A DNA stretch of 3,253 nucleotides from Naegleria gruberi (taxonomy: Eukaryota), in assembly GCA_000004985.1 (NCBI GenBank), contig GG739230.1; one strand, written 5' to 3'. The notes under the pieces were generated by a model that saw only the letters and a list, made by a program, of their open reading frames with translations, did no database searches and was not told the DNA's origin. A program made the translations under genes and the position numbers. This document shows positions 6-3,215 of this stretch, one piece after another (the first letter of the stretch is position 1; the number at the start of each line of letters is the position of its first letter).

Positions 6-3000
6 ATGGTTCTTGAATCTGTATTATCTGAAGATAACAAGGTCTATTCAGACGCAAAGTCATACTGTCAACTGTTGTTGACTTGTGCCATTGCTTGTGA
101 AATTTCGTACATGCCTGATCCATTGTACACATTAAACAAGGAGTATTCCCAATTTGAGCATGGTATCAAGAAACTATGTAGTAGTATTACTAATGATATG
201 GACGCAAAGGCAACACTTGAAACAAGATATGTTGTGGCTGATTGTTCTGATGAAAATCGTAAAAGAATTGTTGTAGCAATTAGAGGTTCCTACTCCAAGT
301 CTGATATTTTGACAGATGTAAAGTTGATCCCTGCCATGAATTACTATGGATATGGCGTTTTACATAGTGGCTTCTTGGAAAGAGCCAAATTCATTCCACT
401 TGATTACTTTTTAGAAAAGATTAACGAAGGTTATCAAGTTGTTATTACTGGACACAGCATGGGTGGAGCAGTTGGGGCCATCCTTGCAACGCGATTGATG
501 CAAGCTACTGAAGCAAAGGCCATCAAGAAACCACCAATTCAATTCATTGGTTTTGGAGTTCCCTTGCTGGCTGATGTTAAGTTCAAAGAAAGAATTCTAA
601 AAGATGAACAGTCGAACTATTTCCATTTTTATATCAACGAAAAAGATTGTGTTCCAAGATCTATTAGTATTGTTAGTGAAATTATCAGTCTTTCTGCTGA
701 ATCAGATCTGATTGACCAAGTGTCAAACTTTCTAAAAACTGTTGTGTCGGCAATCTCCAGTATTACAGGAAGGGTTCATAGAGCAGAAATAATTAATTCT
801 GGTATATCTGTTTTCCAGTGGTTTTCTAAAGTAATTGCCAAGGTAATTCACAAATATGCACCACAGTTTTCTCCTTTTGGTAATCACATTCACATTTCCT
901 ATTCTAACAATAAGCAAATAGTTACTGAACATCAAGAGGAAATTTACGATTTAAGCGACAAGTTGGCAGAGATGTTCAGTAGAGAGAAACTGGAAATGAT
1001 TCAACACCACAAAATGACCAATTACTTTCATGAGGTGTTGAAGATTTGTGACTGTTTTGAATTCAAAAAAGATTGCTTTCTCAAAGGTTATTTCAATAAG
1101 AAAGCAGAAAAAATGCAAGATTTGCATGTTCCAGAAAATTGGTCCTTCGTTCCTCTTAGATGGGTTAAGAAGCAAGATGAAAATGCAGATGCCTTTGAAG
1201 GAAAGGAGTGCTACTCTGTTCGTCTGATTGTAAATGAAGCTACCGTTGATGTAAACTTGACACTAATTTCAAAGAAATTTGTGAATTACATTACAAAGGT
1301 TGAGATTATCAATCCTATTTGTCAGCAGGTGAGTGTTCGTGATGAGATGAATGGTGTTACTTATTGCCTAAGCGGAATCGTGAAAGACTTTTGGAAACAT
1401 AATACTTTGCATGTCAAATACCTACAAGTTAAGTTTACAACCCATTTCAACTCTGTTATTTGGGATCTTCCTGTTAGCCATGTAACTCCAGAAGTTGGAC
1501 AAAGTGTAAAGGAGGAGAAAATTTCCAAGTTACCAGTTGACCTCTTGTATATGTATGCTTTGAGTTTTATTTTCGCTACCAGCAAAGTTGAAGATGAATC
1601 GATAAGAGCGAAAAGAAGCAATTTACTCAGATTACTCGGAGATCTTGATGAACTCAATGAAGGGAGTACAATTCCAAAATCCAATATTGACAGTCAAGAG
1701 TTGAATATGAAACTATTAAGAATGTTCTTTGAGGGAACAAACGAGCAAGTTGGAGATTATGGTAAATTGTTCCATCTTAACTTTTCATTTTCCACTGAAA
1801 CAGCTAAATTGAGTGAAGAATCGTTGACTTTTAGAGATTTAGTTGATAAGAAATTTTTAACAGTTCTCCACCATAATTCAGTTCAATGTTCCTTAATTAA
1901 GGAAATGTTTTCTGAAAAGATTGGAATGGGAGCCAGTGCAGCAGGCCTTGGTATTAGCGCTGGTGTTTGTTCTGGTTTACTTTTCGTCCCAGGCATAAAC
2001 CTCTTTGCAATTGGTGCTCTGATAGCAACAGGAGTGGTGAGCTTGGCAAGTTTTGCAGCATTTATGGCCAATTATGTTAGGAAGAATAGAGATGTATTAG
2101 ATTATGAGCAAAATCTTAAAACATTCATGGACAGCTTTTATATAGTCTATTCACACAGTATACCTACTTTGTATCACTTTGAAAAATTGATTTTTGATTG
2201 GACTCGCACCAATTTATTGAAGTATGATGATAATGCTTACATTCTTGACCACTGGTCAGAAGTTTTCGGAAAGGGGTCTACCATTGGTTGGGTCAGTGTC
2301 TCCGAAAGGAAGAAAGTATTGAGAGTGTTGAAATCTGCGTGTATTAACTATCAAATCAGACAAGAATTGATGAAAAACTTCTACGTTGGAGTTGTTGGAA
2401 TGAAGAAATGTGGAAAATCAACATTTGTCGAAAAGTTCCTTCATAGAAATGCTAACGCCTCAAGTATAATAGCTACAACTGAAATTCAAGCATACCCACT
2501 AACAAGTAACTCATCCAATTTTGCTGTTTGGGACTTCCCACACTATGAAAGTCAGGATCATCTCCACAAAGTTCAATTTATTACTTCTCGTTTTTTATTG
2601 GACTATATTGTTGTTGTATACGATGCCCTTTCCAAATGTGATAAAGAAGAATGCAAAGAACATATCAATGTTATCAAACAAAGTAATGATCACAGATTCA
2701 TTGTTTTAATGAACAAGGCAGATGCGTTATATAAGCCAAACATGAATATGACAAAAGACCATTTTGATGACACAAGAAGGGAATGTTCCCTCAAACTTGG
2801 TGTAGATATTTCAAGAGTAATTTTGACCTCAGTTGACCCAGCTATAAATAATATCCACCAATTGAAACCTTGGGGTGTAAACATGATGTCAGAAATAAGA
2901 GATGTAATTTGGGAAGATTTAAAGACAACAGCAAAACGAACAGTTGCAGAGGTTGAACAAGAATGGAATAGTTTGAAGAAGTATGATGCCCTTAAAGTTA

Positions 3001-3215
3001 GCATTGAATTCAGAAGAAAGGGAAAGAATTCCTCCTTTTGCTTCTCTTGGGATAAATTAAAGAATTTGCAATTCAGAGAACTTGTAGAAGAGCTGAAGAA
3101 TGAATTTGATTATGACAATATCAAAATAACCACTAAGAATTCATTAGAAGAGATTTCAGATATGCAACAGTTACTAGAACATGAGGATCATGAATTCATT
3201 GTAGAAAAACAATAA
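6..3215 (+). CDS. Large multidomain protein (1069 aa): N-terminal class 3 lipase (alpha/beta hydrolase), central glycine-zipper transmembrane hairpin, C-terminal IRG/IIGP-like P-loop GTPase with helical tail
   Basis: A 3210-nt uninterrupted ORF from the ATG at 6-8 to the TAA at 3213-3215, followed by a second in-frame TAA. Recognisable catalytic motifs of two enzyme families occur in-frame (GHSMGG, DCVPR; GMKKCGKST, NKAD). Every other ORF in the window is under 110 aa and nested inside it. Only 5 nt lie upstream, so the true start could be further 5' of the window, although the N-terminus aligns sensibly with the start of Lipase_3 domains. Confidence 0.92.
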   Translation: MVLESVLSEDNKVYSDAKSYCQLLLTCAIACEISYMPDPLYTLNKEYSQFEHGIKKLCSSITNDMDAKATLETRYVVADCSDENRKRIVVAIRGSYSKSDILTDVKLIPAMNYYGYGVLHSGFLERAKFIPLDYFLEKINEGYQVVITGHSMGGAVGAILATRLMQATEAKAIKKPPIQFIGFGVPLLADVKFKERILKDEQSNYFHFYINEKDCVPRSISIVSEIISLSAESDLIDQVSNFLKTVVSAISSITGRVHRAEIINSGISVFQWFSKVIAKVIHKYAPQFSPFGNHIHISYSNNKQIVTEHQEEIYDLSDKLAEMFSREKLEMIQHHKMTNYFHEVLKICDCFEFKKDCFLKGYFNKKAEKMQDLHVPENWSFVPLRWVKKQDENADAFEGKECYSVRLIVNEATVDVNLTLISKKFVNYITKVEIINPICQQVSVRDEMNGVTYCLSGIVKDFWKHNTLHVKYLQVKFTTHFNSVIWDLPVSHVTPEVGQSVKEEKISKLPVDLLYMYALSFIFATSKVEDESIRAKRSNLLRLLGDLDELNEGSTIPKSNIDSQELNMKLLRMFFEGTNEQVGDYGKLFHLNFSFSTETAKLSEESLTFRDLVDKKFLTVLHHNSVQCSLIKEMFSEKIGMGASAAGLGISAGVCSGLLFVPGINLFAIGALIATGVVSLASFAAFMANYVRKNRDVLDYEQNLKTFMDSFYIVYSHSIPTLYHFEKLIFDWTRTNLLKYDDNAYILDHWSEVFGKGSTIGWVSVSERKKVLRVLKSACINYQIRQELMKNFYVGVVGMKKCGKSTFVEKFLHRNANASSIIATTEIQAYPLTSNSSNFAVWDFPHYESQDHLHKVQFITSRFLLDYIVVVYDALSKCDKEECKEHINVIKQSNDHRFIVLMNKADALYKPNMNMTKDHFDDTRRECSLKLGVDISRVILTSVDPAINNIHQLKPWGVNMMSEIRDVIWEDLKTTAKRTVAEVEQEWNSLKKYDALKVSIEFRRKGKNSSFCFSWDKLKNLQFRELVEELKNEFDYDNIKITTKNSLEEISDMQQLLEHEDHEFIVEKQ
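48..905 (+). other. Lipase class 3 (Lipase_3-like alpha/beta hydrolase) domain, aa ~15-300, probable triad Ser151/Asp214/His(294 or 296)
   Basis: CQLLLTCAIACEISY matches the N-terminal helix typical of this family. RIVVAIRGSYS (nt 264-296) matches the conserved 'VVAFRGT' strand. VVITGHSMGGAVGAILA has the nucleophile elbow GHSMG at nt 450-464 (Ser codon agc at 456-458). FYINEKDCVPRS has the Asp-x-VPR motif (Asp codon gat at 645-647), characteristic of Rhizomucor-type and DAD1/PLA1-type lipases. The His assignment is tentative. Confidence 0.85.
906..1922 (+). other. Central region of unknown function (aa ~301-639), soluble, mixed charge, Cys-containing (ICDCFEFKKDCF)
   Basis: I recognise no diagnostic catalytic motif here. 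There are no long hydrophobic stretches. A Lys-rich patch lies at aa 352-390 (KKDCFLKGYFNKKAEK...RWVKKQ). It could be a lipid/membrane-binding or regulatory linker domain. Confidence 0.3.
1923..2078 (+). other. Predicted transmembrane helical hairpin with glycine-zipper (aa 640-691)
   Basis: GMGASAAGLGISAGVCSGLLF-VPG-INLFAIGALIATGVVSLASFAAFMANYV is about 50 consecutive apolar/small residues. It has a G649xxxG653xxxG657 glycine zipper and a central Pro-Gly turn. It is flanked by the charged residues E638/K639 upstream and RKNRD downstream. This is locally the most GC-rich part of the gene, because of the GCN/GGN codons. Confidence 0.7.
2367..2885 (+). other. P-loop GTPase domain, IRG/IIGP-like (G1 2397-2420 GMKKCGKS; putative switch-I Thr824/825; G3-position WDFPH 2529-2543; G4 NKAD 2712-2723)
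   Basis: Walker A GxxxxGKS/T is preceded by the hydrophobic strand FYVGVV. NKxD, the guanine-specificity motif, is preceded by the hydrophobic strand RFIVLM. G1 to G3 is ~45 aa and G3 to G4 is ~60 aa, matching Ras-superfamily geometry. The W-D-x-P context of G3 and the GKS P-loop resemble immunity-related GTPases. The G3 Gly is replaced by His. Confidence 0.8.
2886..3212 (+). other. C-terminal charged, predicted alpha-helical/coiled-coil tail (aa 961-1069)
   Basis: It has heptad-like charged stretches (EIRDVIWEDLKTTAKRTVAEVEQEWNSLKKYDALK; LQFRELVEELKNEFDYD) and an acidic end (EHEDHEFIVEKQ). It is analogous to the helical C-terminal domains of IRG/dynamin-like GTPases. Confidence 0.45.

Follow-up and report, generated by a model that had tools for sequence, protein, structure and literature searches.

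A Naegleria gruberi protein that joins a class-3 lipase domain, a predicted membrane hairpin and a noncanonical TRAFAC-class G domain in one chain, and its relatives among eukaryotes

The window considered here, i.e., the whole stretch of DNA that was analysed, is one entire small contig of the heterolobosean Naegleria gruberi (GG739230.1, assembly GCA_000004985.1), with a length of 3253 bp and 35% G+C. It holds one complete open reading frame (ORF), at positions 6..3215 of the plus strand, on which all the features described below are located, and this ORF encodes a protein of 1069 amino acids (aa) followed by a stop codon. The product is 100% identical to an N. gruberi entry labeled “predicted protein” (P0001) and consists, from its N-terminus, of a Lipase_3 domain, a beta-sandwich, a helical region, a glycine-zipper hairpin, a helical linker, a G domain, a helical pair, and a C-terminal module. 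An earlier, sequence-only reading of this DNA had reported the same single ORF, and the motifs that it listed are all found where it placed them. In what follows, we describe the protein and its family, and we develop the tentative view that it is a membrane-resident class-3 lipase gated by its own nucleotide switch.

At the base composition of the window, for which stops are expected at 7.7% of codons, a frame of 1069 codons would stay open by chance with a probability of ∼1e-37. The longest ORF among 300 shuffles of the window reached 166 codons, the largest in its other five frames is 107 aa, and scans of the window for Rfam families and tandem repeats returned no family and no repeat. The AlphaFold2 model of the full-length protein, built from a 76-sequence family alignment, has a mean predicted local distance difference test score (pLDDT) of 82.5 and a predicted template modeling score (pTM) of 0.81, so that the structure prediction which the sequence-only reading had proposed as a check is a confident one; its low-confidence parts are residues 1–12, residues 302–314, and the hairpin at 636–685.

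Because the contig is only 3253 bp long and N. gruberi has another gene model with the same sequence, the ORF could be suspected of being an artefact, either an assembly chimera of two genes or a gene with an unspliced intron. The second model, P0002 (635 aa, on a 4507-bp contig), has residues 309–746 spliced out, which removes the motif of the predicted catalytic histidine (His335), the beta-sandwich, the helical region, and the hairpin. Every full-length relative has conserved this stretch, most of which is modeled with confidence; P0002 is therefore probably, and on these grounds very probably, an annotation artefact, located on a duplicate or allelic scaffold. Moreover, a 418-kb contig of Willaertia magna encodes an orthologue of 1040 aa that is collinear with the N. 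gruberi protein, with an identity of 58% overall, 64% in the lipase, 51% in the middle part, 70% in the hairpin region, and 61% in the GTPase and tail; the region cut out in P0002 is conserved at 51–70% in Willaertia and is retained in dozens of full-length relatives. Together with the improbability of so long an open frame, these observations effectively refute the artefact explanation, which we regard as essentially excluded. The sequence-only reading had pointed to the region near 900–1900 as the place where a frameshift or an intron might be hidden; collinearity with Willaertia and with at least 50 full-length relatives instead upholds a single polypeptide.

The gene model of the Willaertia orthologue has a peculiarity of its own. 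It places a 95-nucleotide (nt) intron after the residues FEKLI (L001, 10190–10290), and inside this stretch the frame encodes residues homologous to N. gruberi aa 730–757 until a stop is reached, with coding resumed in another frame. Before the frame break, the skipped stretch reads LQWTHNN...HWSEIF in Willaertia and FDWTRTN...HWSEVF in N. gruberi. The break is either a frameshift, an assembly error, or a very short intron. As the Willaertia model skips the corresponding stretch, a hidden N. gruberi intron at aa 735–766 was considered; it was rejected because the Willaertia frame is homologous there and the frame of the N. gruberi DNA is unbroken.

The N-terminal third of the architecture is a class-3 lipase domain with an alpha/beta-hydrolase fold (aa 17–350; 54..1055), whose core, residues 89–220, matches Pfam Lipase_3 (PF01764) with E=1.2e-16 and 61.3 bits against a cut-off of 22. 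The nucleophile elbow GHSMGG with Ser151 (456..458) and the motif EKDCVPR with the triad acid Asp214 (645..647), both already recognized by the sequence-only reading, are now joined by His335 (1008..1010), the predicted triad histidine, which lies in a QxHxxxxY motif. Among the 50 full-length relatives compared, the serine is found in 40, the aspartate in 49, and the histidine motif in 42, and all three residues are invariant among 18 catalytic members of the family. Judging from the profile match, the elbow, and the fold, the Ser151/Asp214/His335 triad belongs to a class-3 lipase with predicted lipolytic activity.

Between Asp214 and strand beta8 lies a helical insert (aa 216–284; 651..857) made of helices 216–227, 233–253, and 259–284, modeled with a pLDDT of 54–70, which from sequence and model may be a lid-like element of the type found in the plant proteins EDS1 and PAD4. 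In a search with a profile of 18 lipase domains of the family, the matches included rice PAD4 (8e-24), a Rhizopus lipase (1e-22), and Vitis EDS1 (1e-22). The EDS1 and PAD4 alignments run through the helical insert to a common “PFG” strand, with that of EDS1 extending to the histidine motif, whereas those of the fungal lipases end at the triad aspartate. By these alignments, the lipase domain resembles most closely the lipase-like domain of EDS1 and PAD4.

The likeness to EDS1, PAD4, and SAG101 thus concerns the N-terminal lipase-like domain with its insert. Neither a Pfam scan nor profile comparison gave any sign of an EDS1-type EP domain in the Naegleria protein, which, in contrast to the EDS1 family, combines an intact triad with a hairpin and a GTPase that EDS1 proteins lack, and which has its relatives in protists and invertebrates, not in plants. 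Fungal class-3 lipases, such as those of Rhizomucor miehei and Rhizopus, are small, secreted, single-domain enzymes (260–360 residues in solved chains). The Naegleria protein differs from them, and from the plant PLA1 enzymes, in the span of about 120 residues that separates the triad aspartate from the histidine, in its five further modules, and in having no signal-peptide-like start.

The second enzymatic unit is a TRAFAC-class G domain of the Era/EngB/EngA type (aa 792–960; 2379..2885), assigned by Pfam and profile matches and having the G-domain fold. Pfam MMR_HSR1 matches with 30.9 bits (cut-off 21.9) and Roc with 27.9 bits (cut-off 27), while the NCBIfam match is just small_GTP, below its cut-off. 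The G1 motif, or P-loop, reads GMKKCGKST (residues 798–806; 2397..2423), and its Lys804 is present in all 50 relatives; the G2 threonine, Thr824, is a threonine in 48 of them; the G4 motif NKAD (residues 903–906; 2712..2723), responsible for guanine specificity, keeps Asp906 in 40. The spacing from G1 to G4 is Ras-like. The motif that departs from the TRAFAC pattern is G3, which is DFPH (aa 843–846; 2532..2543) in place of DxxG, with His846 replacing the canonical glycine. Hence, the Ras-geometry GTPase described by the sequence-only reading stands as regards G1, G4, their spacing, and the MMR_HSR1 match, but the unusual G3 had been missed.

This replacement is not restricted to N. gruberi. 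The motif is DYPH in Willaertia, and the residue at the position of Ras Gln61 is aromatic; a histidine is found in 27 of the 50 relatives, a set that comprises heterolobosean, rotifer-type, and Paulinella sequences, and 19 have retained the canonical form D[FL]PG, among them those of Hydra, Owenia, Branchiostoma, Salpingoeca, and Cavostelium. It is the G3 glycine that makes switch II flexible enough for its GTP-dependent movement, and the conformational change is blocked in Ras G60A and Gs-alpha G226A. In addition, Era, EngA, MnmE, and other GTPases in which the Gln61 position is hydrophobic have to organize catalysis in another way. With both changes combined, the switch of the DxPH clade is unlikely to be a standard Ras-type timer. 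The notion of two competent enzymes in one chain therefore survives for the lipase, whose triad is intact by sequence, and is doubtful for the GTPase. A different deviation marks the animal branch (P0046, P0059, P0078, P0080, P0090, P0095, and P0107), in which G1 and G3 are canonical and G4 is often degenerate (NQCG, NKCG, SHCG, or SQCS), so that base specificity may differ there.

The sequence-only reading had likened this domain to the immunity-related GTPases (IRGs), and this assignment is not borne out. The profile of the family G domain matches EngA/Der at 1.6e-18, EngB at 1.6e-12, and Era and eIF5B at ∼1e-10, with Irgb6, Irga-type, and Irgb10 sequences at 1e-10 to 1e-8, behind EngA and EngB. 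Pfam IIGP (PF05049) has no match in the window protein at E≤1 and is not among the 25 families listed for 26 G domains of the family, of which MMR_HSR1 matches 26 of 26, GTP_EFTU 17, Dynamin_N 17 (weakly), and AIG1 1; the 21 other families, of which IIGP could be one, match at most one member each. In Foldseek, IRGB10 and Irga6 are the first GTPase matches, with template modeling (TM) scores of 0.31–0.33 over ∼290 columns, and the IRGs (Irga6, Irgb6, Irgb10, and IIGP1C) likewise have a G domain flanked by helical regions. Given the profile and Pfam results, “IRG-like” describes at best a loose structural resemblance of what is a generic Era/EngB-type TRAFAC GTPase. Era, EngB (YihA), and EngA (Der) are themselves soluble ribosome-assembly factors with a G3 of DxPG; the G domain discussed here differs from them in its D[FY]PH motif and in being part of a membrane protein with a lipase, and their role offers no parallel.

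Conservation of the two catalytic sites is uneven across the family. The triad is intact in 38 of the 50 full-length representatives, and the other 12 (P0012, P0014, P0018, P0023, P0024, P0025, P0026, P0031, P0033, P0038, P0055, and P0102) are without Ser and/or His, six of them without both, with elbows replaced by GHGLG, GHRLG, GFEFG, GHCxG, and others. All 12 sit in the DxPH clade, and all retain the P-loop lysine, Thr824, and Arg785, a residue described below. The loss of the histidine together with the serine supports the triad assignment, and the pattern of losses implies that pseudo-lipases arose repeatedly. These members suggest another role for the protein, namely that of an EDS1-like signaling scaffold, in which the lipase-like domain would serve mainly to bind a ligand or partner and not to hydrolyse, the G domain would be the switch that delivers the output, and paralogues with and without catalysis may form pairs. 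The retention of the G-domain residues by every triad-defective member fits such a role, as do the EDS1-type insert and the PFG strand common to the lipase domain, and EDS1, PAD4, and SAG101, the best solved relatives, act in immunity independently of catalysis. However, N. gruberi and Willaertia have complete triads, as do all 19 representatives with the canonical DxPG, which argues for selection on catalysis in these lineages, and we consider such a scaffold improbable.

The two enzymatic units are separated by the only strongly hydrophobic stretch of the protein, at residues 643–692 (1932..2081), where the Kyte–Doolittle means over 19-residue windows rise to 2.12. With a Pro-Gly turn at 662–663 and a GxxxGxxxG zipper at 649–657, it forms two helices and conforms to the glycine-zipper hairpin that had been proposed from the letters, and its low pLDDT is usual for membrane segments. 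Equally in agreement with that proposal, the N-terminus is acidic and not hydrophobic, with no signal-peptide-like start by hydropathy. A hydrophobic segment ahead of the G domain, defined as a 19-mer with a Kyte–Doolittle mean of at least 1.5 between the middle region and the G domain, is found in 46 of 63 relatives, among which are members of the distant choanoflagellate and animal branches, and for this reason anchoring is probably ancestral. The 17 relatives that are without it overlap only in part with the pseudo-lipases. At the position that the hairpin occupies in other members, P0012 and P0025 have low-complexity inserts of ∼170–190 aa rich in Ala, Thr, and Gly.

Helices connect the membrane segment to the G domain (aa 693–789; 2082..2372) and contain Arg785 (nt 2358–2360), which belongs to an IRxxL motif in the helix just before strand beta1. 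It is present in 49 of the 50 relatives, with a lysine in the remaining one, a conservation that matches that of the P-loop lysine. Judged from this pattern, Arg785 could act in cis as an arginine finger, make a contact in a dimer, or serve as a latch between domains.

A hairpin anchor with helical bundles around a G domain is also what would be expected of a membrane-remodeling GTPase resembling mitofusin or atlastin, where dimers of the G domain would tether or fuse membranes and the lipase would serve as a local, lipid-editing accessory. The weak Dynamin_N matches in 17 of the 26 family G domains point the same way. In the window protein, however, Dynamin_N stays below its threshold (17.3 bits against a cut-off of 27), and the G domain is smaller than in mitofusin/Fzo1 and atlastin and closer to EngB and Era. 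The order of domains is reversed as well, with the G domain C-terminal to the hairpin, and the lipase, the beta-sandwich, and the C-terminal module are without counterpart in those proteins. Moreover, with its noncanonical G3 the protein is unlikely to run through a rapid cycle of hydrolysis. We therefore regard a remodeling GTPase as quite improbable, and return to a membrane-anchored lipase under the control of its G domain as the reading to be judged against the family at large.

To define this family, 1.84 billion representative sequences were searched by hmmsearch with a profile made from two heterolobosean sequences. The matches number 1113 at E≤1e-3, 263 at E≤1e-10, and 39 at E≤1e-30; many are 900–1250 aa long and aligned end to end, and at least 50 full-length representatives cover the lipase and the G domain in the same layout. 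A separate homologue search, started once from the single protein and once from a 23-sequence family alignment, gave the same three proteins and no others. Pfam finds Lipase_3 and MMR_HSR1 together in most of the 15 relatives scanned. Taxonomy is available for a named minority of the members, which includes the rotifers Brachionus plicatilis, B. calyciflorus, and Didymodactylos carnosus, along with Paulinella chromatophora, Cavostelium apophysatum, Salpingoeca rosetta, Hydra vulgaris, the annelid Owenia fusiformis, and the amphioxus Branchiostoma. The named full-length matches of the all-protein HMMER search, which served as an indirect test for prokaryotic relatives, are eukaryotic without exception. 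The order of lipase, hairpin, and G domain is thus conserved from Heterolobosea to animals, across eukaryotic supergroups, which settles in the affirmative whether the fusion is kept in homologues.

Five members from metagenomes have eukaryotic-looking neighbors, among which are an hAT transposase, HTH_animal, AMPK1_CBM, and split MutS and kinase genes. On such contigs (e.g., L083, L084, and L086) the family gene is an uninterrupted single exon, whereas the other genes are fragmented by introns. A giant-virus origin of the AT-rich metagenome members was considered and dropped, as searches of viral contigs and of the BFVD viral structure predictions yielded no full-length relative with the fusion, just stand-alone class-3 lipases or GTPases.

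No description of a lipase–hairpin–GTPase architecture was found in the literature searched, and a check of terms in PMC3417536 and PMC8296547 did not find it described there. The labels of the named members are “uncharacterized”, “hypothetical”, “Fungal lipase-type domain-containing protein”, or “predicted protein”, in keeping with the earlier statement that the architecture was not recognized as a described family. The parts are of known kinds; what is new is a G domain hard-wired to a membrane-anchored class-3 lipase of the EDS1 type, with a noncanonical G3 that is specific to a clade.

The distribution of the family brings up a further alternative, close to the one advanced by the sequence-only reading, which is that of a cell-autonomous immune or suicide effector. 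In this scenario, infection would trigger GTP-dependent oligomerization on a pathogen vacuole or on the cell's own membranes and free the lipase for the destruction of that membrane, in the manner of the IRG and GBP proteins or of bacterial abortive-infection phospholipases. The distribution is patchy and incongruent with the species tree; in a neighbor-joining tree, the rotifer sequences cluster with those of Naegleria, Paulinella, and protists and not with other animals, a grouping that could reflect ancient paralogy or horizontal transfer. There are many diverged, paralogue-like representatives with pseudo-enzymes among them, the C-terminus varies between members (P0032 ends in a SAM domain), and the genes are single exons in animal-like contigs. 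Such traits are common among conflict-related gene families, and to these may be added the nearness of the lipase domain to plant immune proteins and the Foldseek matches to IRGB10 and Irga6. On the other side, besides the absence of IIGP matches reported above, none of the PADLOC models matches the window protein at E≤1, and Pfam scans of this protein and 15 relatives show no Death, TIR, CARD, or NACHT-type domain. The hairpin, moreover, would be a permanent anchor, unlike the situation of the IRG and GBP proteins, which are recruited from the cytosol. An effector of this kind is possible but unlikely. Its original formulation, as a membrane-attacking sensor, switch, and effector in one, went beyond the data, given the empty PADLOC result, a single SAM domain in one relative only, and the 12 of 50 representatives devoid of a triad.

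A broader version of the defence idea, which we consider distinctly unlikely, would see in the family an ancient eukaryotic relative of the lipase-like module of plant EDS1, joined directly to an anchor and to a noncanonical G domain with a histidine in G3, and with a function in regulated cell death or in cell-autonomous defence. Phospholipid hydrolysis would then be released, or in the pseudo-lipase paralogues regulated, by a nucleotide-dependent assembly of the protein with itself in the membrane.

The reading that we prefer, while granting it somewhat less than an even chance, remains that of a membrane-resident class-3 lipase gated by its own nucleotide switch, in a family spread across eukaryotes. 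As there is no signal peptide and the hairpin has two helices, both enzymatic domains would lie on the cytosolic side, at the surface of whichever membrane or lipid droplet the hairpin is inserted in. The G domain, having the P-loop lysine, the G2 threonine, and the NKxD motif, would bind a guanine nucleotide and set the position or the lid state of the lipase through the helices flanking the hairpin, and self-association through the G domain and the glycine zipper probably contributes to this control. Lipid hydrolysis in the membrane that carries the hairpin would in this way be limited to one nucleotide or assembly state. With DFPH at G3 and an aromatic residue at the Gln61 position, intrinsic GTP hydrolysis is probably slow, or dependent on a partner or on dimerization, and the switch may be a long-lived, nucleotide-bound latch and not a fast timer of the Ras type. 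Candidate settings are the lipid turnover of an organelle or lipid droplet, and a response to stress or in defence.

In favor of the gated lipase are the conservation of the P-loop lysine (50/50), of the triad (38/50), and of the hydrophobic segment (46/63). That a GTPase and a lipase can work together as separate proteins has a precedent in the mouse, where the IRG IFGGA2 binds ATGL on lipid droplets (PMC7957830). Several points weigh against it. The exchange of the G3 glycine for histidine could abolish switching altogether; lipolysis is not a universal output of the family, since 12 of the 50 representatives have no triad; and membrane anchoring is not universal either, with 17 of the 63 relatives without the segment. 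The hairpin, modeled with low confidence, could be bilayer-spanning or monotopic, and the coupling of the G domain to the lipase is suggested by the conserved fusion and the compactness of the model.

Regarding the concept of a G domain in the same chain as an enzyme that it is thought to regulate, the closest comparison is with the ROCO proteins, such as LRRK2, and the Roc match of the window protein recalls them. The differences are that the Naegleria protein has neither a COR domain nor a kinase, that the partner enzyme is a lipase, and that the protein is predicted to be membrane-integral.

Although the modules are familiar, the chain in which a hairpin permanently links them has been kept from Naegleria to Hydra, annelids, rotifers, and amphioxus, and if the G domain does gate the lipase, the family would represent a self-contained means of switching lipid hydrolysis on a membrane. 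More usually, this task is shared by a GTPase and a lipase that are different proteins, as in the pairs Arf/ELMOD2 and IFGGA2 with ATGL. The clade-wide change from DxxG to DxPH, along with the near-invariant Arg785, offers a natural experiment on how a G domain functions without the switch-II glycine. Likewise, the similarity to EDS1 and PAD4 means that a domain at the centre of plant immunity now has an outgroup outside plants, and the recurrent loss of the triad in the family has its counterpart in plants, where the domain is used without catalysis. Should the defence reading be true, plant EDS1 signaling, animal membrane immunity of the IRG type, and bacterial phospholipase effectors would be linked in one ancestral design. 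As the gene is a single exon, constructs can be made easily.

The remaining modules are known mainly from the AlphaFold2 model. Behind the lipase is a seven-strand beta-sandwich (aa 402–489; 1209..1472), modeled with a pLDDT of 79–95 and having no Pfam match, which might be a lipid- or partner-binding module similar to C2 or PLAT domains. It is followed by the helical region ahead of the membrane segment (aa 501–642; 1506..1931), and a helical pair stands behind the G domain (aa 961–994; 2886..2987). The chain ends in a C-terminal module with the element order bbab(a)b (aa 998–1068; 2997..3209; pLDDT 57–92), an order that, in the model, suggests a beta-grasp fold. Its profile has no significant match in the PDB or Pfam, and in P0032 the SAM domain takes its place; the module is found in 29 relatives, all of which belong to the Naegleria-type clade.

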